From the NCBI GenBank assembly GCA_025349965.1, contig CP075337.1:420001-452000 (forward strand): DNA of 32,000 nucleotides. The letters are read 5' to 3'. The position numbers and the translations under genes are program-made. The notes beneath the pieces were generated by a model that had not been told where the DNA came from, did no database searches, and saw only the letters and a list, made by a program, of their open reading frames with translations. The DNA is from Candidatus Saccharimonadota bacterium. Its GTDB lineage: Bacteria > Patescibacteriota > Saccharimonadia > Saccharimonadales > Saccharimonadaceae. This document shows positions 7,068-30,738 of the stretch, piece by piece (the first letter of the stretch is position 1; every line of letters starts with the position of its first letter).

Positions 7068-7117
7068 GGCTTAAATAGACTATTATAAATAAGATACAAC
7101 TTATGTTTGGAGGGCAC

Positions 7118-8491
7118 ATGCGTAAAACTTCACTGCAAGGATTTACCATCGTCGAGCTTTTAATTGTTATTGTTGTTATTGCAGTTCTTGCAACCATAAC
7201 AATCGTCTCCTATAACGGCATTCAAGTACAAGCACATACAAGCGCTCTTAAGAGTGATGCTCGTACAGCTATGTCCTTTATGGAAACAGACAGGGTAACA
7301 AGAGGAGCCTACACCACCGACCCAAATATGCTCAACGCCGGAAGTGGCCTACCGGTAAATTCAGATCGAAGCTTTGCCTTCTATAGCGACGGTACGGCAT
7401 ACTGTATCTCAGTACATTCAACTCGAGTCAGTACAACATTTTATGTCTCGAATGAACAACCATCTCCCAAAGAAGGCCTATGTCCTCAAGATAGTGGCGC
7501 TAGTGTAGCTTCTCTTGCAGGAAACGGTTCGCTCGGGTATGCAAACGGTAGCGGTGAAGCGGCTGTACTCGCATCCCCAGTGGCCCTTTCATCTAGCTCT
7601 GGGAACGTTCTTTATTTCACTGATTCAAGCACTTCGCGCGTGCGACAAGTCACTACGGCCGGCGTCGTGTCAACGATTGCGGGAAATGGCCCAACGGGCA
7701 CCACAGAGGGTGTCGGCAATGCGGCGCTCTTCAATTGGCCGCAGGCAGTGACTATCGGGTTTAACGGGCATCTCTACGTTGCCGATTCAAACAATCAACG
7801 CATCAGAACAGTTCCTCTTAATAACACATCAACGTCTGTTTTTGCAGGCCTCACGGGGACTTCAACAACAACTGGATTCGCAGAGGGGACTGGCACCGCG
7901 GCACGTTTCAACGTACCTCGTGGAATTGCATTTGACTCAAATAATAATCTACTCTACGTAGCTGATTCGCAAAATAACCGAGTTCGTAGAATAACCGCAG
8001 GGCAGGTTGTCGACACCCTTGCGGGGCAGTCCGGCGGAGGCTTTGTCGACAATACAACAGGTACGCTTGCACAGTTCAACTATCCACAGGGCCTTGCAGT
8101 GAGCACCAACGGCACGATTTACGTCGCGGATACGAACAATCATAGAATTCGCATGATAACACCATCTGGAAGTGTATCGACACTAGCGGGCGGACTACAG
8201 GGCAATGTAGATAATGATGGTACTGCGGCACGTTTTAACAAGCCGAGCGCCGTAGCAGTATCTGCAAACGGTACGGTATATGTAACCGACACCGACAACC
8301 ATAGTATTCGCAAAATTACACCCGCTGGAAAGGTTTCTACAATAGCAGGTAACGGTATGGCAGGATACGCTAATGGAAACGGGAGTGATGCACGCTTCAA
8401 TGCTCCACGCGGCATTGCGCTTGGAAGCGACGGGCGTTTGTATGTAGCTGATACGGGTAATCATCGTATTCGAGTCCTTACGAATCTATAA
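7118..8491 (+). CDS. Modular type IV pilin / pseudopilin with a C-terminal six-bladed NHL beta-propeller (457 aa)
   Basis: The ATG at 7118 follows GGAGGG. The prepilin signal is MRKTSLQG|FTIVELLIVIVVIAVLA, with Phe at +1 and Glu at +5. A pilin globular head follows, with a Cys pair (YCISV...GLCP), then six NHL repeats. Confidence 0.85.
   Translation: MRKTSLQGFTIVELLIVIVVIAVLATITIVSYNGIQVQAHTSALKSDARTAMSFMETDRVTRGAYTTDPNMLNAGSGLPVNSDRSFAFYSDGTAYCISVHSTRVSTTFYVSNEQPSPKEGLCPQDSGASVASLAGNGSLGYANGSGEAAVLASPVALSSSSGNVLYFTDSSTSRVRQVTTAGVVSTIAGNGPTGTTEGVGNAALFNWPQAVTIGFNGHLYVADSNNQRIRTVPLNNTSTSVFAGLTGTSTTTGFAEGTGTAARFNVPRGIAFDSNNNLLYVADSQNNRVRRITAGQVVDTLAGQSGGGFVDNTTGTLAQFNYPQGLAVSTNGTIYVADTNNHRIRMITPSGSVSTLAGGLQGNVDNDGTAARFNKPSAVAVSANGTVYVTDTDNHSIRKITPAGKVSTIAGNGMAGYANGNGSDARFNAPRGIALGSDGRLYVADTGNHRIRVLTNL
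7506..8488 (+). repeat. Six tandem NHL-type repeats of about 55 aa (about 165 bp)
   Basis: Recurrent pattern (T/S)xAG...G.A.(A/L)RFN.P.G(I/V)A....G.LYVAD..N(H/Q)RIR.(I/V)T..G.VS. Blade ends read YVADSNNQRIR, YVADSQNNRVR, YVADTNNHRIR, YVTDTDNHSIR and YVADTGNHRIR. Confidence 0.8.
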
Positions 8492-11891: not shown

Positions 11892-11920
11892 TTGCAAAAA
11901 TATTACTTTTATAGTATAAT
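11892..11920 (+). promoter_or_regulatory. Promoter TTGCAA-N17-TATAAT of the surface-protein gene
   Basis: -35 at 11892-11897 and -10 at 11915-11920. The leader is about 105 nt and holds two small hairpins at roughly 11956-11995. Confidence 0.6.
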
Positions 11921-12031
11921 ATAGTTGAGTATTTAGAGTTGGGTACTTTTGTGTACGATTCTGCGCTTTTCGCGCTGTTTTTGAGCACGAAAAACCTTCT
12001 AGATACTTGCACCTACACAGATTGGGGAGAA

Positions 12032-14002
12032 ATGACCAAAGAAAAACAGGGAGGTAAGCGCAAGTTTATTGCACTTGCACTCCTGAGCGCGCTCGTGACG
12101 AGCTTCTTCGTCGTGAGCGGACCGGTAAGTGGAGCTGAGGCGCACACCGGAGATATCACGGCCACGGCTGCCTGCAATGCAGGCACCGGGGAGTACGATG
12201 TCACTTACACACTGACGCTGCGCAATACGCCGCCGGGTCAGACTGCCTCAACCATGTGGCGGATCGGTAGCCAGAACTTCCAGGGGACGCCCAACAGCGC
12301 CGCCGGGATGGACAAGGGGCCGATTTCCTCCGCAGGTAACGGACAGGTGGTCCTCGGATCACATTCGTTGCCGGGTACTACCGTTGGCAATGGTCCTTGG
12401 GTCTACGCCTACACGAAGTGGAGCGGTGGCTACGGCTACGGTTCTGACACTCGCGTCGAGGGCCTCAAGGGCAACTGCAGCAAGCCCTTCGACTGGAACT
12501 GGCAGTACGCCGCACCGACGTGCGATGGACTGACGGTGACCTACCCGGCAGACCTGCCGGCGGGTCAGGCGAACGATGTCAACATCCGTGTGAAGAACAT
12601 GGAGACGGGCGAAGTTCGTACCTTCAACTTCCATAACAACACCGGCACCTGGTCGGGTACGCAGACGTTTGACGTCAAGGCGCACCCGGACTGGCCCGGA
12701 TGGAAGTACTACGAGTTCCAGTGGACTCAAGTGGCAGGTACCAACTACCACTGGCAGGGGAGTCTCATTTGCGGAACGCAGAAGCCCCCGAAGCCCGAGC
12801 CCAAGGTGGAGCGGACTCCCAAGGAGACCGTTGACTGCGCGGCGAACATCGTCAACATCGTCATCACGGTGAAGACGAGCGACCCCGTATGGAACGAGGA
12901 GCTGTACGACTGGGCCTACGGTGAGCCGGTTGTGACGACAGAGATGTCGACACGTCCACTGACCGATGCCGAACGTCTGCAGTGTGCGGGTGACAAACCC
13001 GAACCGAAGGTTGACGTGAAGACGACGGAGAAGGTTTCCTGTGAGACCGAGCTCGTCACCATCACGAAGACCACTACCACAGAAGTGTACGTCCTGGACG
13101 GCACCAAGTGGGTTCTGGGCGAGCCTGATGTGAAGGTGGAAACGAGTGATCGTCCTGCCACCATTGAGGAGCTCAACAAGGCCGAGTGCCCGCCGGGCAC
13201 CGAGCCGCCCCCGCCCGTTCATGAAGTGGATGTGAAGACGTCGCTGGACTGCACCACCGAGACGGTGACGACGACCACGACGACAACGGACATCCTGTAC
13301 GTCTGGAACACGGAGACGCGTACCTACGTCCTGGGTAAACCCGACGTGAAGGTGGAGACGAGCACTCGCCCCGCCACTATCGAGGAGCTCAACAGCGCCG
13401 AATGTGACCCGACCACTCCTCCCGAGCCAAAGGTGAAGGAGGAAGTGACTACGGTCATTGACTGCGCCACTGAGACGGCGACGGACACGAAGGTGGTTAC
13501 GACCATCGATCCGGTCTGGAACGCGGAGACGCGTACCTGGGTGGATGGCGAGCCCAAGGTCGAGTCCACCGACACAGTGCGGCCGGCAACGGTTGACGAG
13601 TTGAACGGCGCCCCGTGCGACCCGTCCACTCCGCCGCCACCGGTCGTCAATGTTACCAGCAAGGAAGTGCTTGACTGCACGACCAAGAAGGTAACAACCT
13701 CGACCGATGTCGCCGAGTCGAAGCCGACTTGGGACGTTGACACCCGCACCTGGGTGTTTGGCGACCCCGTGGTCAAGACCAGTGTCACTCAGCGTGACGC
13801 AACAGCAGCAGAGGTGAAGACCTGCCCGGCGACGCCGAGCAAGAACACTCCAGTGCCGCCCAAGACCACCAAGTCCGGCCTTGCCGTGACTGGCGGCGAA
13901 ACCATACTGCCTCTCGTAGGTGGTGCTGCCGCGCTGATTCTCCTCGGCGCAACCCTGACGATCCTCGCGGTTCGTCGCCGTCGTCAGAACGCAGACGCGT
14001 AA
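12032..14002 (+). CDS. Cell-wall-anchored surface protein with an LAxTG sorting signal and five tandem domains (656 aa)
   Basis: The ATG at 12032 follows GGGGAGA. Signal peptide MTKEKQGGKRKFIALALLSALVTSFFVVSGPVSGAEA. The C-terminus is LAVTG (13880-13894) plus a hydrophobic helix and an RRRRQ tail. About 60% GC. The ORF start at 11939 is a spurious extension. Confidence 0.85.
   Translation: MTKEKQGGKRKFIALALLSALVTSFFVVSGPVSGAEAHTGDITATAACNAGTGEYDVTYTLTLRNTPPGQTASTMWRIGSQNFQGTPNSAAGMDKGPISSAGNGQVVLGSHSLPGTTVGNGPWVYAYTKWSGGYGYGSDTRVEGLKGNCSKPFDWNWQYAAPTCDGLTVTYPADLPAGQANDVNIRVKNMETGEVRTFNFHNNTGTWSGTQTFDVKAHPDWPGWKYYEFQWTQVAGTNYHWQGSLICGTQKPPKPEPKVERTPKETVDCAANIVNIVITVKTSDPVWNEELYDWAYGEPVVTTEMSTRPLTDAERLQCAGDKPEPKVDVKTTEKVSCETELVTITKTTTTEVYVLDGTKWVLGEPDVKVETSDRPATIEELNKAECPPGTEPPPPVHEVDVKTSLDCTTETVTTTTTTTDILYVWNTETRTYVLGKPDVKVETSTRPATIEELNSAECDPTTPPEPKVKEEVTTVIDCATETATDTKVVTTIDPVWNAETRTWVDGEPKVESTDTVRPATVDELNGAPCDPSTPPPPVVNVTSKEVLDCTTKKVTTSTDVAESKPTWDVDTRTWVFGDPVVKTSVTQRDATAAEVKTCPATPSKNTPVPPKTTKSGLAVTGGETILPLVGGAAALILLGATLTILAVRRRRQNADA
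12785..13845 (+). repeat. Five tandem repeats of about 210 bp (about 70 aa) inside the surface protein
   Basis: Each unit runs from a P(E/V)PKV-type linker, through (V/L/I)(D/S)C, ...(P/Y)(V/T)WN.ETRTWV.GEP.V....RPAT..ELN.AEC. PEPKV-encoding 15-mers lie at about 12794, 12998 and 13421. Confidence 0.8.
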
Positions 14003-14052
14003 GCGTTTCTGCCCCTGAAGACACCCTAGCCGGGTAGTCCGGTGCTTAGAGC

Positions 14053-14100
14053 CTCAACAGCCAGTTGAGTCGCTCGGCACTGGGCCGCCCGGCCTTTTAT
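14053..14100 (+). terminator. Weak hairpins and a T tract after the surface-protein gene
   Basis: CTCAAC / GTTGAG at 14053-14069, and GGCC-gccc-GGCC followed by TTTTATTTT at 14083-14103. Confidence 0.35.
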
Positions 14101-14163
14101 TTTGTGATTATTTTCCAAACACTAGTTTAGCGTTATGGCCCTTGCTGAGTACGCTACATTTTC

Positions 14164-14792: not shown

Positions 14793-14863
14793 ATAAGTAT
14801 GGTAGTAGTCGTGTGAATGCACGGCTACTATTGTATCTGTCCACTAGAGAAATGGAGTTCATC

Positions 14864-15505
14864 ATGTTGATGAAAACGACACAGCTTCAGACACTTGGCG
14901 GTGTTGATGACGGAGGAGGTCCTCTCGTCACTGCAACCCTACACAATGACGCAGAGCGTATTCCGGGGAGTACCATTCCAACCATCAAAGACGTCTTCAC
15001 GCAGCCCGGCATCATGTCCGGCCATGTAGTAAAGATTCTCAACGAGAGGTTGTGCGAGAATATAGCGCCACTTCTCCTGATGTCCGGGCCATCTATGCGC
15101 AAGCTCGACGGTATCGGGCCCGGCAGGGCGGTTTTCATCCGCGACGCTCTCACTGCCGCCCAGCTTCGGCTACGGTATGAAGAGGAGCGCGTGCACGAGC
15201 GTGCCAAGATGCTGTTCGGTAGTATCGAACAAACGCCCATCCAGGCGCTGCTGGTTACCTCCGCACTGAGCGGTGGCTACGTGGCAGATGTACACGTGCA
15301 CAGTCCGGCTGTACAGCTGATTGCTCAGCGCACCTCCATCCGCACCATCGGTGAGCTGATGGGTCATCTGGCGTCGAAGACTCAGCTCGCACGCTATTTT
15401 GACCTCTCGGGGCTCGCTATCGATGCTCGCCATGTTCGCGACACGTTCGTTGAGCTGGAAAGCCGACTGCAACCCTGGAGGCTCTCACTGAACAGCGTGT
15501 CGTAA
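14864..15505 (+). CDS. Hypothetical helix-hairpin-helix protein, high-GC (213 aa)
   Basis: The ATG at 14864 lies 6 nt after GGAG. HhH-like segments are MRKLDGIGPGRAVFIRDAL and IRTIGELMGHL. A sampled line is about 65% GC. The ORF start at 14813 is unsupported. Confidence 0.6.
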   Translation: MLMKTTQLQTLGGVDDGGGPLVTATLHNDAERIPGSTIPTIKDVFTQPGIMSGHVVKILNERLCENIAPLLLMSGPSMRKLDGIGPGRAVFIRDALTAAQLRLRYEEERVHERAKMLFGSIEQTPIQALLVTSALSGGYVADVHVHSPAVQLIAQRTSIRTIGELMGHLASKTQLARYFDLSGLAIDARHVRDTFVELESRLQPWRLSLNSVS

Positions 15506-22781: not shown

Positions 22782-24242
22782 ATGTTGCAGTTTCACAACC
22801 AACTCACTAAAAAAGTTGACCAGTTTACACCGTTAAAAGAAGGTGAAATCACGCTCTACACCTGTGGCCCAACCGTCTATAGCACGCCAACTGTTGGCAA
22901 CTGGGCTTCATATGTCCACTGGGATACGCTTGTAAGAACACTCCGTACCCATAAGTATGACGTAAAGCGCGTCATGAACATCACGGATGTTGGCCACCTC
23001 GTCAGCGACGGTGATGAAGGTGAAGATAAGCTTGAAAAAGGTGCGCGTCGCGAGGGAAAGACTGCGTGGGAAGTTGCCGAGTACTACATGCAAGACTTCC
23101 TCAACGGCATGGACGCGCTCAACCTCATCCCGCCAACCCATACACCACGAGCAACCGAGTTTATTGAGGAGCAGCTCAACCTTATTCGCATCCTTAAAGA
23201 AAAGGGGTATACCTATCAAATCTCTGACGGAATTTATTACGATACCGCCAAATTCCCAACCTACGACACCTTTGCCGGTCTTGACCTTGATGCGCAGAAA
23301 GCTGGCGCACGTGTAGAGTTTAATCCAGAAAAGCGTAGTGCAAGTGATTTTGCGCTCTGGAAGTTTACCCCAGCAGGGCAAGTGCGTGACATGGAGTGGG
23401 AGACACCGGCAGACCTCCTCGAACAAACTTCTACGGCTACTGCGATGGGATTTCCTGGCTGGCACCTTGAGTGTTCAGCAATGGCACTCAACCTTCTAGG
23501 TGATACAATCGATATTCATACCGGCGGCATTGATCACATCCCCGTGCATCATACTAACGAAATTGCCCAATCGGAAGCTGCGACCGGGCAACGTTTTGCA
23601 AATTACTGGCTCCACACGAATCACCTCAAGGTGAATGGTACAAAAATAAGTAAGTCGCTTGGCAATGGCTACACACTACAAGACCTTGAGAAACTCGGTT
23701 TTGACCCGCTTGATTTGCGCATGGCAATTCTCCAGGGTCACTACCGTTCTGAGGGTAACTTTACCATCGAAGGGCTTGAGGCTGCCCACAACCGTCGTCT
23801 CAACTGGCGGAATAGTGCTGCGTTGCGCCATCAAATGCACGATACAATCGAGAAGAATAGCGTCGAGAATAGCAAGCTCACCGTACGGTTTGAGGCTGCT
23901 CGTCGTGAACTTGTTGAGGCACTTGCAAATGACCTAAATACGCCAGAGGCGCTTGCGGTTGTTGATGCCCTCTTCAAAGAAATCGTTACACTTCCACTTG
24001 AGGAACTGTATGATGCTGGCTTCTTGCAATTCCTTGAGACAGCCGACGAACTTCTTGGGCTTGAGCTGCTTAGTAGCACGCCAGACATTTCCGATGAACA
24101 AAAAATGCGTCTTGTCCAGCGACTCCGCGCCCGAGAAGAGAAGGACTTTGCAACTTCAGATGAAATCCGCGACGAGCTTCTTTCAGATGGCATTGCGGTA
24201 CGTGACACGCCAAGCGGCACTGTTTGGGAATACGTCGCCTAA
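22782..24242 (+). CDS. cysS: Cysteine--tRNA ligase (486 aa)
   Basis: Collinear with CysRS: YTCGPTVY, GWHLECSAM, GGIDHIPVHHTNEIAQSEA, KISKSLGN and DDLNTPEA. The ATG lies 1 nt after the nrnA stop codon. Confidence 0.95.
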   Translation: MLQFHNQLTKKVDQFTPLKEGEITLYTCGPTVYSTPTVGNWASYVHWDTLVRTLRTHKYDVKRVMNITDVGHLVSDGDEGEDKLEKGARREGKTAWEVAEYYMQDFLNGMDALNLIPPTHTPRATEFIEEQLNLIRILKEKGYTYQISDGIYYDTAKFPTYDTFAGLDLDAQKAGARVEFNPEKRSASDFALWKFTPAGQVRDMEWETPADLLEQTSTATAMGFPGWHLECSAMALNLLGDTIDIHTGGIDHIPVHHTNEIAQSEAATGQRFANYWLHTNHLKVNGTKISKSLGNGYTLQDLEKLGFDPLDLRMAILQGHYRSEGNFTIEGLEAAHNRRLNWRNSAALRHQMHDTIEKNSVENSKLTVRFEAARRELVEALANDLNTPEALAVVDALFKEIVTLPLEELYDAGFLQFLETADELLGLELLSSTPDISDEQKMRLVQRLRAREEKDFATSDEIRDELLSDGIAVRDTPSGTVWEYVA

Positions 24243-24251
24243 TAAAAAGAA

Positions 24252-24277
24252 AAGACGGCTTCTAGGCCGTCTTTTTT
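24252..24277. terminator. Bidirectional terminator between cysS and the AI-2E gene
   Basis: AAGACGGC-ttctag-GCCGTCTT flanked by A and T tracts. It overlaps the last codons of the minus-strand gene. Confidence 0.8.
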
Positions 24278-25374
24278 GTTGTCTTTGTTTTTGGGGCTAT
24301 TTTTCTATCGTTGCGAGCAAGGTGCTCATCAATCAACACACGGATAACCCCAGCAATTGGGATAGCGATGATACCTCCGACAACACCGAACATGTACAAG
24401 CCGATTGTTACGGCACCGAGCACCATCAATGCAGATAAGTCAATTCGCTTTGCCTGAATATGTGGTGAGATGAAGTTATTTTCAACTTGCTGATAAATAA
24501 CGAAGAAGACAGCGTAAGTAATTGCTGCAGGAATGCTATTAAGCGCGAGGAGGAGACAAATTATAACTCCACCGATAGTTGCACCGAACATTGGAATTAA
24601 TGAAAGTACAAAAGTGATTGCGGCGGTTGGCATAGAAAGACTTGCCTCAACCGGTGGAAAGATGAAGCTCAACGCGAAAACAGCGAGACCGGCCGCGGTT
24701 GCACCAATTGCAGATACAGTAAGCTGTCCGGTGATGTAGCCACTCACTACAGAGTACATGCGTCCTGAAATGCGACGGTGCTGCTTCATCTTTTCTTTAT
24801 CCTTATAAAGGCGCCAGATGCGGTTCATCCATTCAGGACCCTCAATCAACATCAAGAAAGTAAGGACAAGTACGAGAATGAGTGCCGCGAAGAAGGAGAA
24901 GAGTGAGCCAATCCCAGCAACAACTTGGCGTCCAACATCACCCGCCCATCCAGCTGCATTATTCTTGATAGATTCGAGTGCAGAGTCAACTTGAGCCTGT
25001 AGACCATACTGTTCTACGAGATGATTAAGGCCCTGCCACTGATTAGTCGCTGAATCAACAAACTCAGGAACATTCTGTGCAAACCGAGCAGTCTGTTGAA
25101 CAATAGGTGGAATGACAAGCACGACCACGGTGGCGAGAATTGCAATTACCGCAACATAGGCAAGCGCTGTTGCACCAACACGGCTTCGTCCCGGCAGCTT
25201 ATTGGCAATCCACGTAACAGGGCGGTGGAGGGCCATCGTAAGAAAGAAGGAGACGCCAAGGATAATCAAACCAACCTGCGCCTTATATAGTAAGAATCCG
25301 GCAAGGCCGATAGCGAAAACTACCAACCAAAACCGTACAAATGTCTGTGTGTCAATTTCTATACGGGTTCTCAT
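24262..25374 (-). CDS. AI-2E family (UPF0118/PerM-like) transporter (370 aa)
   Basis: About 8 TM helices and the characteristic C-terminal region (YQQVENNFISPHIQAKRIDLSALMVL). Confidence 0.82.
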   Translation of the reverse strand: MRTRIEIDTQTFVRFWLVVFAIGLAGFLLYKAQVGLIILGVSFFLTMALHRPVTWIANKLPGRSRVGATALAYVAVIAILATVVVLVIPPIVQQTARFAQNVPEFVDSATNQWQGLNHLVEQYGLQAQVDSALESIKNNAAGWAGDVGRQVVAGIGSLFSFFAALILVLVLTFLMLIEGPEWMNRIWRLYKDKEKMKQHRRISGRMYSVVSGYITGQLTVSAIGATAAGLAVFALSFIFPPVEASLSMPTAAITFVLSLIPMFGATIGGVIICLLLALNSIPAAITYAVFFVIYQQVENNFISPHIQAKRIDLSALMVLGAVTIGLYMFGVVGGIIAIPIAGVIRVLIDEHLARNDRKIAPKTKTTKKTA

Positions 25375-25380
25375 GTTATC

Positions 25381-25389
25381 AGTATACCA
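25381..25389 (-). promoter_or_regulatory. TGGTATACT extended -10 ending 6 nt before the AI-2E ATG (leaderless type)
   Basis: The minus strand reads GTGGTATACT-gataac-ATG. Confidence 0.5.
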
Positions 25390-25440
25390 CTACTTAACCC
25401 TAGACAAACCGCTTGTGCCTCTCTATAGTTATAGGAAGAT

Positions 25441-27102
25441 ATGGAGCAGCTGATATCACAGCTTAGGGGGGCGCTTTCTGGTACTATTTCAACGAGCCAG
25501 ACGGCTCGAACTGCCGTACGTCGAGACGGGAGTCTTTTTGAGAGTATCCCTGATGCTGTAATGACGCCTGCAACCGCCGCTGATGTATCATCGCTCGTGA
25601 AGTTCGTCGTTAAACATAAAACAAGTTTTCCGAAACTTGCCATTACCGCACGCGGAGCAGGGACGGACATGTCTGGAGCGGCGATTGGTTCATCAATTAT
25701 ACTGGACACTTCGACACTTTCAACTATACAAGCCTTCAATGGGCGCTTTATTCAAGCCCAGCCTGGCGCGCGCATCGATGACATGCAGCGAATTCTCTAT
25801 GCGCACAACCTCACACTTGCTTCAGCCCCCTCAAATCAGCACCTCACCACACTTGGGGGGATGGTGGCTAATAATAGTGCAAGTGCCGATTCGTTCCGTC
25901 ACGGAACAACTGAACGGTGGGTAAGGGCGCTAAAAGTGGTGCTCGCGGACGGTAATGAGTATGTCGTTCGACCACTGAATAAAAAAGAACTTGATAAGAA
26001 AATGGCTCAACCGACGTACGAAGGGCGCCTTTACGCACATTTATATTCGTTGCTTAACAAAAATTATGATTTAATTCGTAACGCACGGCCACACACAACC
26101 AAAAATACGAGTGGTTACAATCTATGGAATGTATGGGACAAGGAGAATGGTATTTTTGACCTCACACAACTCTTCACAGGAAGCCAAGGTACGTTGGGCA
26201 TCATCACCGAAGCAACACTTGAAGCAGTTAAACGACCCGCCTTCACAGGGACACTTCTCGTACACATACCGTCGCTGAGAAAACTTGACCTTGTCTTGAG
26301 CACCATTAGACGCCACAACCCCTTGAGTATCGAGGGATTTGACGATCTATCATTTATGCAAGCGCTCCAGTCTCACGCAACACTCCGCAAGCGACTCGGC
26401 AAACGTGAATATATAAAGCAGCAAGCACGCCTCACTTCATCGGCACTTTCACTGCGCTCAAGCGGCAACCAACTTCTTTTGGCGGTTACAGTAGATGGCG
26501 ATACACAGGACATCGTACTAAAAAAGATTGAGTCGCTGTACGATGAGCTCTCTCGTTATAAGGTCGGGCTCGATATCTCTATAGATTCCCAGTCGCAGAC
26601 CCAAGGTCGTCGCATGCGCCAATCAACGCTTGCACTGATTCAAGATCAGATTACCACGTGGCACGCTTCGCCGTTTATCGATGACATGGCCGTTCATCCA
26701 ACGCGCGTTGCCGCTTTTCTTCCACGACTACAGAAAATCCTCAAGAAGTATTCGTTTCCAGCGATAATTCACGGTCACTTTGGAGACGGAAATTTCCACA
26801 TTGTCCCGCTAAAAGATGTCTCCTCTGCAAAAGAGCGAGCAAAGCTCGAGCCAATGATGCGAGCCATTAGCGCGCTCATTATCGAATTTGACGGTACGCT
26901 CTCAGGCGAGCATGGCGATGGAATGATACGTGGCCCTTGGCTTCCGGCACAGTTCAACCAAGAGGTGTACGCGCTCTTTAAAGGCGTAAAAGAACTTTTC
27001 GATCCGTTGTATATTTTTAACCCCCACAAGAAAACTGACGCCTCATGGGAATACAGCATGTCACAGCTTCGCCCAGAAGCGAAAATGGGACAAAAGCGCT
27101 AA
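25441..27102 (+). CDS. FAD-binding (PCMH-type) oxidoreductase, GlcD/D-lactate dehydrogenase-like (553 aa)
   Basis: N-terminal FAD_binding_4 pattern (ARGAGTDMSGAAIG, LGGMVANNSAS, GSQGTLGIITEATL) and a C-terminal FAD-oxidase domain (HGHFGDGNFH, SGEHGDG). Confidence 0.82.
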   Translation: MEQLISQLRGALSGTISTSQTARTAVRRDGSLFESIPDAVMTPATAADVSSLVKFVVKHKTSFPKLAITARGAGTDMSGAAIGSSIILDTSTLSTIQAFNGRFIQAQPGARIDDMQRILYAHNLTLASAPSNQHLTTLGGMVANNSASADSFRHGTTERWVRALKVVLADGNEYVVRPLNKKELDKKMAQPTYEGRLYAHLYSLLNKNYDLIRNARPHTTKNTSGYNLWNVWDKENGIFDLTQLFTGSQGTLGIITEATLEAVKRPAFTGTLLVHIPSLRKLDLVLSTIRRHNPLSIEGFDDLSFMQALQSHATLRKRLGKREYIKQQARLTSSALSLRSSGNQLLLAVTVDGDTQDIVLKKIESLYDELSRYKVGLDISIDSQSQTQGRRMRQSTLALIQDQITTWHASPFIDDMAVHPTRVAAFLPRLQKILKKYSFPAIIHGHFGDGNFHIVPLKDVSSAKERAKLEPMMRAISALIIEFDGTLSGEHGDGMIRGPWLPAQFNQEVYALFKGVKELFDPLYIFNPHKKTDASWEYSMSQLRPEAKMGQKR

Positions 27103-27146
27103 AAAATTGCATAATTGTTACTTGTTAATGTATAGTAAAGGTACTT

Positions 27147-27455
27147 ATGCAAAAACAGACAATTGGATGTGTAAAGGCGGCAACGGCAGTACTCGGAGAT
27201 AAATGGACTCCTCAGCTTCTTCGCTTTTTCGCAAATGAGCCAGCTGTTCGTTTTGGAAGCATTCAAGACTTCGTAGAAGGAATTAATCCTCGTACACTTT
27301 CCGCGCGTCTTGGCAATTTAGAGCAGGAGGGGGTTATCCAAAAAATAACCAAGCCAAACACAACTCGGTGCGAGTATTGTCTCACCGAGAAAGGTAAGGC
27401 GCTCATCCCAATTCTCACCGCCATGGAGACATGGAGCCGAACCTACGAATCTTAA
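27147..27455 (+). CDS. HxlR-family winged-helix transcriptional regulator (102 aa)
   Basis: LGDKWTPQLLRFF..., F..I......INPRTLSARL..LE..G.I, typical size. Confidence 0.82.
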   Translation: MQKQTIGCVKAATAVLGDKWTPQLLRFFANEPAVRFGSIQDFVEGINPRTLSARLGNLEQEGVIQKITKPNTTRCEYCLTEKGKALIPILTAMETWSRTYES

Positions 27456-27494
27456 CGATAGGTTAAATATCAGCACACTCTCAGAAAAGTGGCG

Positions 27495-27500
27495 TATACT
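27495..27500 (+). promoter_or_regulatory. TATACT -10 box ending 6 nt before the response-regulator ATG (leaderless type)
   Basis: TATACT-agtact-ATG (27507). Confidence 0.4.
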
Positions 27501-27506
27501 AGTACT

Positions 27507-28181
27507 ATGAGAGTGTTAATTATCGAGGATGAACACAAAATTGCTCGGGCCTTAGGCAAGGCTTTGCAACAAGAGACGTATGCTGTTGATATCGCTTACG
27601 ATGGAGACGAGGGCTACGCCATGGCAACAACCGAGCCATACGATATTGCGATTATCGACCGTATGATTCCTGGCGAGTACGATGGGCTTGCTATCGTAAA
27701 GGCAATGCGTGACGCTAAAATTCACACACCCGTACTATTTCTCAGTGCGCTCGATAGCATCCACGAACGCACCAAAGGCCTCGACGCCGGCGCGGATGAT
27801 TATCTTGTAAAACCTTTCGCCCTTGAAGAGCTTCTCGCCCGTGTACGCGCGCTTCTTCGCCGGCCAACAGAACAGCAGTCAACTATCCTCTCAGCAGGCG
27901 ATCTTACGCTCGACCCAGCAAACTTCAATGTTGAACGCGACGGCACTCCAATTCAGCTCACAAGCAGGGAATTTGCCCTACTTGAATATCTACTTCGCAA
28001 TCAAGGTCGTCCCATCAGTAAAGAAACTATCATTTCACATGTCTGGGACTACGACGCGAACGTTCTTCCAAATACCGTCGAAGTGTATGTAAAGTATCTC
28101 AGAGCAAAGGTGGACGCTCCATTTAAACAGCCGCTTATTCATACTGTGCGCGGGTTTGGATATAAGCTCGAGGCTGCATAA
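27507..28181 (+). CDS. OmpR/PhoB-family response regulator (224 aa)
   Basis: MRVLIIEDE start, receiver Asp (IAIIDRMIPG), the KPF motif and a winged-helix C-terminus (LTSREFALLEYLL...VRGFGYKL). The alternative GTG at 27489 adds 6 aa. Confidence 0.92.
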   Translation: MRVLIIEDEHKIARALGKALQQETYAVDIAYDGDEGYAMATTEPYDIAIIDRMIPGEYDGLAIVKAMRDAKIHTPVLFLSALDSIHERTKGLDAGADDYLVKPFALEELLARVRALLRRPTEQQSTILSAGDLTLDPANFNVERDGTPIQLTSREFALLEYLLRNQGRPISKETIISHVWDYDANVLPNTVEVYVKYLRAKVDAPFKQPLIHTVRGFGYKLEAA

Positions 28182-29234
28182 ATGCAGCTCTTTCGCTCGG
28201 CCACACTTAAGCTTACAGTTTGGTATCTTGCTATACTAATGGCTATCAGTCTCGCGTTCAGCGTACTGCTCTATCAACTCAACGTTCGTGAAGTGACCGT
28301 GCGCCTCCAGACGCTTCAGCATAACCTCTTAGGCGACACCATTACGTTACCTTTTCTCCCGCAAACTCCGTCTTCTCCCGCAGCAACGGCGGACTCTCTT
28401 GTCCGTGCAGAGCTCAATACGGCCTCTCGCCAGATGATCACTTCACTCATTTGGGTTAACCTTGTGGTTCTTATCGCCGGTGGCGCAGGTTCGTACCTTA
28501 TGGCACGAAGAACACTTCGCCCAATTGAGGCAGCCCATGAAGCGCAGAGCCGCTTCACAAGTGACGCGAGTCACGAACTGCGAACTCCACTCTCGGCAAT
28601 GAAGGCGGAGATTGAGGTAAATCTACGCGACCCGCAACTAACCGCCAATGAAGCAAAGGAGCTTCTTGAAAGTAACCTCGAAGAAGTAAATAAGCTCATC
28701 TCTCTTACGGAGATGCTCCTCCACTTGTCGCGACTTGAATATGACAAACTTGAGGTCTCTGAAGTCGACATCGCCCTATTAGTAGAAGATAGTGTACAGA
28801 AAAGCGCGCAGGGCAACCGGTTCTCGGTAAAGACTCGCAAGAAGGCTAGTACATTAGCAAACGAAGCCGCCGTTACGGAAGTAATTGATATTCTTATGGA
28901 AAATGCCCTTAAGTACAGTCCAGCGGATGCACCAATCCTTATTCGAATTTTTGAACAACGCGGACATATAGCGTTTCGCATCAAAAACAACGGCCCTGCC
29001 ATAAGTAAGCAAGCAATTGACCGACTTTTTGACCGCTTTTACCGTGCGGATCAGTCTCGCGCCCGCATAGGCCAAAAAGGCTACGGCCTAGGCCTTTCTA
29101 TCGCGAAGAAGATTGTAGAAATCCACGGGGGGTATATTACTGTATCGAGTAATACCCGCGAAACAGCGTTTACCTTCTTTCTCCCCATTGTGAGAAAAGC
29201 GACACACAAACCATCCAAGTCTCAAGCTAAATAG
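28182..29234 (+). CDS. Sensor histidine kinase (HisKA + HATPase_c, 350 aa)
   Basis: Two TM helices, H-box SDASHELRTPL, N-box ENALKYSP and G-box GYGLGLSIAKKIVEIHGG. The ATG directly follows the response-regulator stop codon. Confidence 0.9.
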   Translation: MQLFRSATLKLTVWYLAILMAISLAFSVLLYQLNVREVTVRLQTLQHNLLGDTITLPFLPQTPSSPAATADSLVRAELNTASRQMITSLIWVNLVVLIAGGAGSYLMARRTLRPIEAAHEAQSRFTSDASHELRTPLSAMKAEIEVNLRDPQLTANEAKELLESNLEEVNKLISLTEMLLHLSRLEYDKLEVSEVDIALLVEDSVQKSAQGNRFSVKTRKKASTLANEAAVTEVIDILMENALKYSPADAPILIRIFEQRGHIAFRIKNNGPAISKQAIDRLFDRFYRADQSRARIGQKGYGLGLSIAKKIVEIHGGYITVSSNTRETAFTFFLPIVRKATHKPSKSQAK

Positions 29235-29383
29235 ATCAGCTCTTTAAAGGATAAAAAATACAACGATTTAGCATACATACTTAAGGAGTATTTCAGAAAC
29301 CAATGGGATACTGAGGGTAGTAGCACATTTAGCTACGAAAGAAACAGCCACTAGGCCAATAAAAAGGAAGGGAGTGAACACCT

Positions 29384-29881
29384 ATGAACACCACCACCGC
29401 ACAAACATACCGTACTGCGACCCAACAACCAATTCTTATCAGCAAAAGGGGCATGAAAGACCTTAAAAAGTCTATCGCGCAGTTAGAGCAGGATCTTTCT
29501 GCTATTCAACGAAGTCTTAAAGAAAGTGACAAAACCCACGGTCATGACGACAGATTTGACCGTATTGAGAAACTCCAGCGCCTTGAAGGTATTGAAGCAG
29601 AGCTTCACGATAAAAAGCAAACGCTCTCGCAGGCAAGACTTATTCCGTCAAAGCGCACTCGCCTCAAGGTAGCAGTTGGATCGGTCGTTGACCTTATCGA
29701 TCAGCAAGGACGAATGTTTAGATACACGCTCGTCGAAAGCATCGAAGCCAACCCGAGCGATGGACGCATCTCAACGCTCAGCCCAATTGGCAAAAGCCTC
29801 GTAGGGAAGACCGTCAAAGATGTCATCGAATGGGGAAGTGGCCCAAGTTATCGCAACCTGCAACTCGTTAAAATATCGTAA
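29384..29881 (+). CDS. GreA/GreB-family transcription elongation factor-like protein (165 aa)
   Basis: SD GGAAGGGAG. An N-terminal coiled coil is followed by a C-terminal GreA/B domain (VAVGSVVDL......Y.LV.......DGRIS..SPIGKSLVGK.V.D). Confidence 0.72.
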   Translation: MNTTTAQTYRTATQQPILISKRGMKDLKKSIAQLEQDLSAIQRSLKESDKTHGHDDRFDRIEKLQRLEGIEAELHDKKQTLSQARLIPSKRTRLKVAVGSVVDLIDQQGRMFRYTLVESIEANPSDGRISTLSPIGKSLVGKTVKDVIEWGSGPSYRNLQLVKIS

Positions 29882-29903
29882 TCACTGTAACGACCTGCTT
29901 AGT

Positions 29904-29932
29904 AAAAGCCCAGCAACAATGCTGGGCTTTTC
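29904..29932 (+). terminator. Intrinsic terminator
   Basis: AAAAGCCCAGC-aacaat-GCTGGGCTTTT. Confidence 0.78.
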
Positions 29933-29949
29933 TCGCTCGGAGTACAAGC

Positions 29950-29958
29950 TGGTATACT
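29950..29958 (+). promoter_or_regulatory. TGGTATACT extended -10 upstream of the methyltransferase gene
   Basis: Lies 15 nt upstream of the ATG at 29974. No leader-peptide ORF fits between them. Confidence 0.45.
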
Positions 29959-29973
29959 ACAGTAAAGAACACC

Positions 29974-30738
29974 ATGAAACGAAACACACAAACGCATTCT
30001 CAGAACTTCCTTCGCTCACCCAAGTTGGTTGCGGAACTTCTTCGTAAATCTTCTATTAAATCTTCTGACACCGTGTATGATATCGGTGCAGGAAGCGGGG
30101 TGATTACTTCTGTGCTCGCTCCTTGCGTCGCCGAAGTCGTTGCAATTGAAGTTGACCCAAAGACTGCCGACATACTGCGTCGTAACGTTGAAGAGATTCA
30201 CAAATTTAAGAATGTCACCATCATCGAGAAAGATTTCTTATCATTACCACTCCCCAAGAACCCCTACAAGATTTTTTCAAATATTCCGTTTCACATTAGT
30301 GCCAAAATAGTACGTCGCCTCTTTAATACTCCTTTCAGCCCAGAGGCGGCATATCTTATCGTCCAAAAACAATTTGGTCAAAAGCTCATCTCCTCAGATA
30401 CAAAACGCTTTACAAGCCAGATTGGCATGCTCCTCGGTGCAGAATATGCTATCAAGATTATCAAAAATCTAAATAAAACAGACTTCACCCCCGCACCGGC
30501 GGTGGATACGGTCTTTATTGAATTGAAAAAACGCCCCCAACCACTCGTTGAACGCTCCCGACTCCCTGCCTATGAAGCATTTACTGAACGCTGCTTCTCA
30601 GACCCTCGCTTTCTCGCAAAACAACACCTTGAACTAATCGGTGCAACCCCAGGACTTTCGCCATCACGCCTGTCGCTCAGTCAATGGCTGCTTTTATTCA
30701 ACGCGAGCGAACTGCCCGCCAGCCAACAGAATAGGTGA
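29974..30738 (+). CDS. rRNA adenine N6-methyltransferase, Erm-like (254 aa)
   Basis: HSQNFL at residues 8-13, SAM motif VYDIGAGSGVIT, AIEVD, and YKIFSNIPFHIS followed by AAYLIVQKQF. By memory this organisation matches ErmB/ErmC better than KsgA/RsmA. Confidence 0.68.
   Translation: MKRNTQTHSQNFLRSPKLVAELLRKSSIKSSDTVYDIGAGSGVITSVLAPCVAEVVAIEVDPKTADILRRNVEEIHKFKNVTIIEKDFLSLPLPKNPYKIFSNIPFHISAKIVRRLFNTPFSPEAAYLIVQKQFGQKLISSDTKRFTSQIGMLLGAEYAIKIIKNLNKTDFTPAPAVDTVFIELKKRPQPLVERSRLPAYEAFTERCFSDPRFLAKQHLELIGATPGLSPSRLSLSQWLLLFNASELPASQQNR

Follow-up and report, generated by a model that had tools for sequence, protein, structure and literature searches.

The stretch analyzed here, called the window below, comprises 32,000 nucleotides of a Candidatus Saccharimonadota bacterium (contig CP075337.1, positions 420,001 to 452,000), and our subject is one gene in it that encodes a predicted secreted, modular surface protein. 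The open reading frame (ORF) yields a 656-residue protein that is 100% identical to the hypothetical protein KI440_02330 of Candidatus Saccharibacteria bacterium TM7i, carried on the 780,698-bp TM7i contig at NCBI. TM7i is a cultivated epibiont that grows on the actinobacterium Leucobacter aridicollis J1, from cicada slough (PMC9894109), which bears out a condition raised in an earlier note on this DNA, namely that the organism might be an epibiont of Actinobacteria. Briefly, the protein consists of a signal peptide, two N-terminal modules (named A and B), five tandem repeats (named R1 to R5), and, at the C-terminus, a signal for sorting to the cell wall, and the gene is bracketed by its own predicted promoter and terminator (Table 1).

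The signal peptide is formed by a basic n-region (MTKEKQGGKRK) and a hydrophobic core followed by an AEA/H cleavage site, as read from the translation, and the same AxA/H junction is found in 24 of 24 module-A homologues. The mature protein contains 14 Cys residues in seven consecutive pairs, four residues lying in the N-terminal part and one pair in each repeat. Based on domain mapping over 87 homologues, A and B each occur without the other in other proteins. The earlier note had described a single N-terminal domain of about 215 residues with four Cys; the four Cys are present, and the domain is in fact two separate modules, each with a Cys pair of its own. An AlphaFold2 (AF2) model of A and B, built from a 67-row alignment, shows two all-beta sandwiches with a mean predicted local distance difference test (pLDDT) score of 93.3, seven strands being found in A. 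Foldseek searches of this model against PDB and BFVD returned only generic tandem immunoglobulin/FN3 arrangements (E≥1.4e-3, TM score 0.2-0.3), among them transglutaminase C-terminal barrels, RbmA, adhesin extender repeats, and phage baseplate or tail proteins. Directly after the AxA site, His is the first mature residue in 24 of 24 module-A proteins (as HTGD, HTAD, HQGN, or HVGD), and Asp occupies mature position 4 in 22 of them. The invariant first-residue His suggests a functional N-terminus of module A.

The five repeats, each about 70 residues long, share 38-57% amino-acid identity with R3. At the DNA level the best stretch reaches 78% over 77 nt and no tandem array was called; the repeats are old at this level, and a recent internal duplication is rejected because the DNA copies are at most 78% identical. 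In the model of the R3 unit, built from a 60-row alignment, a short helix accompanies three long strands that run antiparallel. The position of Cys407 at the first turn and of Cys458 immediately past the helix means that a disulfide between them may close the modelled unit. Furthermore, the orthologue P0002 on contig L001 (a Saccharibacteria-like contig, its taxonomy, like that of L002, being judged from gene context and composition only) contains three repeats against the five of TM7i, and the difference is made by two in-register deletions of exactly one repeat each. Among 1.84 billion cluster representatives (50% identity), the R profile matched 725 at E≤1e-3, of which 262 reached E≤1e-10, and a protein may contain up to 11 copies. 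The heads found beside R in these other proteins are unrelated (LRR, SpaA, Big_9/cadherin-like, DUF285/MBG, and M6 peptidase), and the architecture suggests that R is a generic stalk unit while A and B form the specific head.

Searches for known relatives of these modules returned little. Pfam gave no family at E≤1 for the whole protein, including the stalk and adhesin repeats Cna_B, SpaA, G5, Rib, SdrD_B, Big, and FN3; PADLOC and PDB searches by sequence and by profile found nothing for A, B, or R; and NCBIfam matched the sorting signal only. For the R3 model, Foldseek found no relative in PDB, the best hits (E 0.076; levivirus coat, SSB, and capping protein) sharing just the shape of a sheet plus a helix. 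Three extracellular modules without a Pfam, NCBIfam, or PDB entry are thus defined. The description in the earlier note of the Sec signal peptide, of five units with one Cys pair apiece that belong to no named domain, and of the C-terminal signal was reproduced throughout.

The C-terminal tripartite signal reads LAVTG (residues 617-621)-GETILPLVGGAAALILLGATLTILAV-RRRRQNADA. LAXTG is the signal of class E sortases, as established for SrtE1 of Streptomyces coelicolor (PMC5148588), and LAVTG has the Ala at the second position of the pentapeptide by which the class is recognized. The nearest curated model is the Micrococcales-type LAVTG domain NF058582. The signal is kept in the orthologues P0002 and P0003, with a ratio of nonsynonymous to synonymous substitution rates (dN/dS) of 0.19 against P0002, and LAxTG-type signals of the Saccharibacteria homologues take the forms LAVTG, LAKTG, and AAHTG. 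Sortases and predicted sorted proteins have been published for a TM7 genome (PMC3812714), and in more than half of the genomes of the candidate phyla radiation (CPR) a sortase family is present, as are DsbA-like and VKOR proteins (PMC6744442). From the tripartite signal we infer that the TM7i protein would be anchored to the wall, and such anchoring is plausible for a bacterium of this group.

Table 1 Features of the surface-protein gene and its product (window coordinates; aa, residues of the protein).
Feature	Position	Strand	Basis and remarks
Sigma-70-like promoter match, TTGCAA-N17-TATAAT	11892..11920	+	Predicted; 10/12 consensus positions, aligned in L001
Shine-Dalgarno-like GGGGAG before ATG	12024..12029	+	Read from sequence; block CAGATTGGGGA conserved in L001
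Coding sequence, 656-aa surface protein (KI440_02330)	12032..14002	+	ORF call, NCBI identity; GC 0.611, GC3 0.755
Signal peptide, aa 1-37, predicted cleavage AEA/H	12032..12142	+	Basic n-region, hydrophobic core, AxA site
His38 codon	12143-12145	+	Invariant first mature residue; homologues P0002-P0081
Module A, aa 38-152, beta-sandwich, Cys48-Cys149, His first mature residue	12143..12487	+	AF2, homologues
Module B, aa 153-252, beta-sandwich, Cys164-Cys247	12488..12787	+	AF2, homologues
Repeat R1, aa 258-327, Cys269-Cys318	12803..13012	+	Domain mapping, repeat alignment
Repeat R2, aa 328-397, Cys337-Cys386	13013..13222	+	Domain mapping, repeat alignment
Repeat R3, aa 398-468, Cys407-Cys458, modelled unit	13223..13435	+	AF2 pLDDT 86.6
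Repeat R4, aa 469-539, Cys478-Cys529	13436..13648	+	Domain mapping, repeat alignment
Repeat R5, aa 540-607, Cys549-Cys598	13649..13852	+	Domain mapping, repeat alignment
Cell-wall sorting signal: LAVTG (13880-13894), hydrophobic helix, RRRRQNADA tail	13880..13999	+	Pattern scan, NF058582
Terminator, 65-nt hairpin then U-run	14029..14101	+	-47.8 kcal/mol, z = -4.7; terminator-like scan match

The gene stands out from its surroundings in composition. The other 28 ORFs of the window average 0.492 in GC and 0.476 in GC at third codon positions (GC3), from which the gene departs by z = +3.8 and +3.3, respectively. The step is sharp, with values of 0.34-0.38 directly upstream and downstream and of 0.55-0.66 throughout the gene. 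The richness of the protein in Thr, Pro, Gly, Ala, and Val raises GC at the first and second codon positions (GC1 and GC2). An AT-rich sigma-70-like match sits just past the terminator of the upstream gene and may act as the promoter. The terminator hairpin downstream of the gene is about 90% conserved in L001, above the 71% of the coding sequence. Rfam searches of the gene with its untranslated regions returned nothing.

The domestication of the gene was assessed by comparison with P0002, whose contig has a 49%-GC backbone and a context of topA, sigma-70, a type IV secretion system ATPase, and pilin-like genes. As estimated from this codon comparison, the gene is under purifying selection in Saccharibacteria, with a dN/dS of 0.13 overall, 0.106 in module A, and 0.045 in module B. 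The two loci are homologous at the nucleotide level from 17 nt ahead of the start codon to the T-run of the terminator, where the homology breaks off exactly; the ribosome-binding site can also be aligned, and so can the -35 and -10 hexamers with the bases just after them. The flanking genes of the two loci differ, so the unit that they have in common is a promoter-to-terminator cassette.

Five further contigs, from Saccharibacteria or Saccharibacteria-like organisms, contain GC-discordant homologues, four of them at different sites, and two of these four break a conserved gene order. The TM7i backbone has a GC of 0.49; the values of gene GC, GC3, and backbone GC are 0.562, 0.605, and 0.491 for L001 (a JGI contig); 0.612, 0.723, and 0.497 for L012 (ENA contig ERZ27247376); 0.561, 0.569, and 0.458 for L008 (Ca. 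Saccharimonas); 0.654, 0.888, and 0.491 for L010 (a 702-kb contig); and 0.647, 0.906, and 0.507 for L004 (Ca. Saccharibacteria 49-20). The region 22782-30738 of the window, from cysS through greA and a dimethylase gene, has the same gene order in L010 and L004, with amino-acid identities of 58-85%. In both contigs (L010, 6517-12739; L004, 5896-11509) a cation ATPase gene and a high-GC B+R surface gene (GC3 ~0.9) lie between greA and the dimethylase gene, with an extra small ORF between the two in L010, and the same junction of TM7i (29881-29974) measures 92 bp only. In Ca. Saccharimonas, a B-module LAKTG gene (L008:10001-11092; GC 0.56 vs 0.46) is found on the opposite strand between rpsJ and tuf, normally a conserved operon junction, and the homologue of L012 adjoins the cox operon. 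A three-gene island of 62-66% GC was also observed on a contig of ~51% GC (L002:842-4695); it includes P0004, which has the order A-B-R3-LAHTG and a GC3 of 0.877 and which, after the orthologues P0002 and P0003, comes closest among the relatives with the full architecture.

In high-GC Actinomycetota, the LAxTG and LPxTG surface proteins contain modules A, B, and R in shuffled combinations (Agromyces, Demequina, Isoptericola, and Nocardioides). Three Agromyces LASTG proteins (P0005, P0009, and P0011, on L005-L007) share A at 60-65% and B at ~60% identity in the same order after the signal peptide and have an LAxTG-type anchor; they differ in their stalks, which are made of other repeats, and some contain an insert of ~75 residues between A and B. 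Module B is also found in one Microbacteriaceae isolate and, singly or as a duplicate, in Demequina, Isoptericola, Luteimicrobium, and Nocardioides (duplicated and unanchored in the last), and is 75% identical to P0018 on an actinobacterial contig of 73.5% GC. The homologues in actinobacterial genomes (L005-L007 and L009) have GC3 values of 0.91-0.99 (0.96-0.99 for the Agromyces genes), like the genomes around them at 71-74% GC. The neighbor-joining tree of module B serves only as a hint, because it is based on ~100 residues and has no support values. Most Saccharibacteria copies fall into one clade, which also holds P0018, P0004, and P0006, and the neighbors of this clade are Luteimicrobium, Isoptericola, and Demequina. 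The tree agrees with a small number of transfers out of a single donor group and a subsequent spread among Saccharibacteria, a pattern from which the events could not be counted.

Collectively, atypical composition, patchy occurrence at non-homologous sites, and a concentration of relatives in the donor clade are all seen, and transfer from Actinomycetota with later domestication is well supported. What the earlier note had proposed in this respect held up on each point: the ~60% GC of the gene against lower flanks recurs at GC3, the backbone-style promoter was located and, together with the terminator and the low dN/dS, speaks for domestication, and the high-GC actinobacterial origin agrees with modules that are common in surface proteins of Micrococcales and Nocardioides, at the GC3 typical of those genomes, and form compositional islands in Saccharibacteria.

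Phages provide a possible vehicle of the cassette. A tblastn search against 50,697 phage records found R repeats in six records, which stand for five jumbo phages of Microbacterium, 186-195 kb in size, four of them being A3Wally, Zooman, Pumpernickel, and Big4. The A3Wally protein gp278 (L013:1504-3708), encoded by a phage of Microbacteriaceae, has in common with the TM7i protein a signal peptide, two R repeats (~40% identical to R1-R2), and an LAQTG anchor; it contains a DGDKDG motif and differs in its N-terminal region, which is without A or B. By its predicted architecture, gp278 is a phage-borne sortase substrate related to the TM7i stalk. A homologue of the order A-B-R4-LPNTG (L011:8001-10392) lies on a 118-kb contig that appears phage-like because of many small unannotated ORFs and its RNA ligase and NAMPT genes. 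The 3' end of this homologue overlaps a 201-residue sortase gene, the named relatives of which are class E sortases. Used as a query, this sortase matched class E sortases of Nocardioides and Propionibacteriales as well as unnamed sequences, two of which, on long contigs, are actinobacterial by gene context. Saccharibacteria phages targeted by actinobacterial CRISPR spacers have been published (PMC10746230). The case for phages as the vehicle is circumstantial, and none of them is linked to TM7i.

The best explanation of the whole, to which we assign a probability of roughly 0.6, is a surface protein with a stalk and a head, of the sortase-dependent kind known from Gram-positive bacteria. The cassette would have come from high-GC Actinomycetota that most resemble Micrococcales, to which the host Leucobacter belongs, and would then have been kept in Saccharibacteria under purifying selection. 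The protein would be exported by Sec and cut by signal peptidase after AEA, leaving His38 as the first mature residue. The seven modules are predicted to fold outside the membrane with one disulfide each, the presence of one Cys pair per extracellular module pointing to oxidative folding after export. LAVTG, the helix, and the RRRRQ tail would retain the protein in the membrane until a sortase cuts between Thr620 and Gly621 and links it to peptidoglycan. The five R units, joined by Pro-rich PEPKV or PPPPV linkers, may act as a generic spacer that presents the beta-sandwich head away from the wall, and the most likely role of the head would be to bind something on the envelope of the actinobacterial host or in the shared niche. 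That the protein is an actinobacteria-derived, secreted, anchor-bearing modular surface protein is highly probable; that it serves as a host-contact adhesin is a tentative proposal.

Rod-like stalks of Gram-positive bacteria, such as G5-E of SasG and Aap, Rib, and SHIRT, are tandem arrays of small beta-rich modules that project an N-terminal head from the wall. Like them, the TM7i stalk varies in copy number by whole R units; unlike them, it has no match to them in sequence or fold, its unit is probably closed by a disulfide, and Pro-rich linkers lie between units. In its Sec signal, LAxTG motif, hydrophobic helix, and Arg-rich tail the protein resembles the class E sortase substrates of Actinomycetota (PMC5148588), from which it differs in passenger modules unrelated to the characterized ones, in a Saccharibacterium as the bearer, and in that no cognate sortase was seen in the window or the compared Saccharibacteria loci. 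With the actinobacterial pilins folded oxidatively by MdbA and VKOR, in so far as they are described where PMC6744442 cites them, the likeness consists in a Cys pair per extracellular module; the TM7i protein is not a pilin, as it is without a pilin motif or a pilus sortase context. Wall-anchored proteins of the sortase type that have a repeat stalk are a recognizable kind, and this one is set apart by three unnamed modules and by its presence in a CPR epibiont as a foreign cassette of the host clade.

Several observations weigh against the sortase-anchored stalk-and-head protein or its proposed history. Type IV pili are the only attachment factor published for TM7i (PMC9894109), and the expression, surface location, and binding of the protein are presumptive. 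No ligand-binding family or fold was recognized for A or B in the family and fold searches. NF058582 was matched over the full model (1-34 of 34; E=3e-4) at 20.9 bits, below the cut-off of 27, so the match denotes resemblance rather than curated membership. For the sortase, there was no PF04203 match among the ORFs of the window, and TLxTC motif scans of all compared Saccharibacteria loci were empty. The closest actinobacterial modules are 65-76% identical, which means that the donor is unsampled or the transfer old, and no Leucobacter is present among the named homologue matches; given these two results and the grouping in the B tree, the transfer would be neither recent nor specific to TM7i. 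Finally, GC3 is raised in both the TM7i and the L001 genes despite saturated synonymous sites (proportion of synonymous differences, pS, 0.67), and a single old transfer is not an easy explanation of the two together. Independent acquisitions from related donors, movement of the cassette among Saccharibacteria, or slow amelioration are possible reasons for the retained GC3.

A surface-exposed protein whose head is no host adhesin is unlikely, though it competes best with the adhesin role. The head might then be a metal-binding or redox module acting through the N-terminal His, as in a histidine-brace copper site, or a general coat or spacer. The invariance of this His, the Asp that nearly always accompanies it, and the want of a specific match of A or B to any known adhesin fold all agree with this proposal. 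Yet module A contains no second conserved His, the 50 best matches that Foldseek gave for the A+B model include no structure of a lytic polysaccharide monooxygenase (LPMO), CopC, or YcnI, the PDB profile search was empty, and the metal or redox head draws on one conserved residue. A bolder extension of the adhesin role, which we regard as equally doubtful, is that Saccharibacteria repeatedly capture wall-anchored cassettes of the host clade, possibly carried by phages that encounter both partners, as adhesins that recognize or mimic the host, the N-terminal His of A being a new ligand or metal site. Such an adhesin may, for example, share its envelope ligands with the proteins of the host, or bind those host proteins.

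Somewhat less probable is that sortase never processes the protein, which would be tethered by its C-terminal helix; LAVTG would have arrived with the gene, and the sortase of TM7i, if it has one, would not accept it. This would agree with the failure to find a sortase in any of the Saccharibacteria sequences compared, with a signal most like the Micrococcales-type model, and with the L011 homologue, whose own adjoining sortase hints that a matching enzyme is needed. Against it, P0002 and P0003 retain both the pentapeptide and the tail although synonymous change is saturated, four other Saccharibacteria homologues keep LAxTG-like signals, and sortases are published in TM7 and most CPR genomes (PMC3812714, PMC6744442).

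A family that originated in Saccharibacteria, or that passed from there to Actinomycetota, with a cause of the high GC other than foreign origin, is improbable. The single clade of most Saccharibacteria B copies, the GC3 that stays raised at saturated synonymous sites, and the amino-acid content that lifts GC1 and GC2 could be read in this way. However, GC3 values of 0.57-0.91 on backbones of 0.46-0.51 GC are not attributable to amino-acid content, and the actinobacterial genes match their own genomes, the range of architectures and lineages with these modules being much wider in Actinomycetota. In addition, the Saccharibacteria genes break conserved synteny at different places, and the actinobacterial P0018 nests within the "Saccharibacteria" clade. 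An assembly artefact, in which Leucobacter DNA from the co-culture with the high-GC host was stitched into the TM7i genome to give a sharp GC island, is very improbable, since the island coincides with a single transcription unit, complete with an AT-rich promoter and a terminator of its own, the GC3 of 0.755 is not actinobacterial but intermediate, independent metagenome contigs bear orthologues or paralogues on 46-51% GC backbones, several of them syntenic with the window, and dN/dS shows long co-residence.

How ultrasmall epibionts recognize and hold their hosts is largely unknown, with type IV pili alone implicated for TM7i, and the gene offers a concrete, cultivable, and testable host-contact candidate in the TM7i-Leucobacter pair. 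Genomes of related epibionts have received surface modules of the host clade at several different sites, and phages that infect the host family carry relatives of these modules. Both the pattern of transfer and the unnamed modules stand as solid, and the host-contact role is hypothetical; if a function were never shown, this would be one more hypothetical surface protein acquired by transfer, and an ordinary one.

The remainder of the window consists of housekeeping genes, including thyA, folA, dcd, dnaX, dnaB, recR, cysS, and greA, together with those for an rRNA adenine dimethylase, a two-component system, and the ribosomal proteins L1, L10 (with an L10 leader), and L7/L12. The thyA gene (1731-2741) is a second compositional outlier (GC 0.573, GC3 0.739) next to folA and dcd of normal composition; an actinobacterial source for it is unsupported, its best solved relatives being the long 316-residue thymidylate synthases 3uwl and 1lca. 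Two genes downstream of the surface-protein gene, a 230-residue ORF (14813-15505) has a raised GC3 (0.64) and matches no Pfam family above threshold. A 462-residue protein (7103-8491) combines a sub-threshold type IV pilin-like N-terminal methylation motif with an NHL beta-propeller; its N-terminus resembles those of pilin-like proteins on L001 and L008, and it may be relevant to the pilus-dependent attachment published for TM7i.

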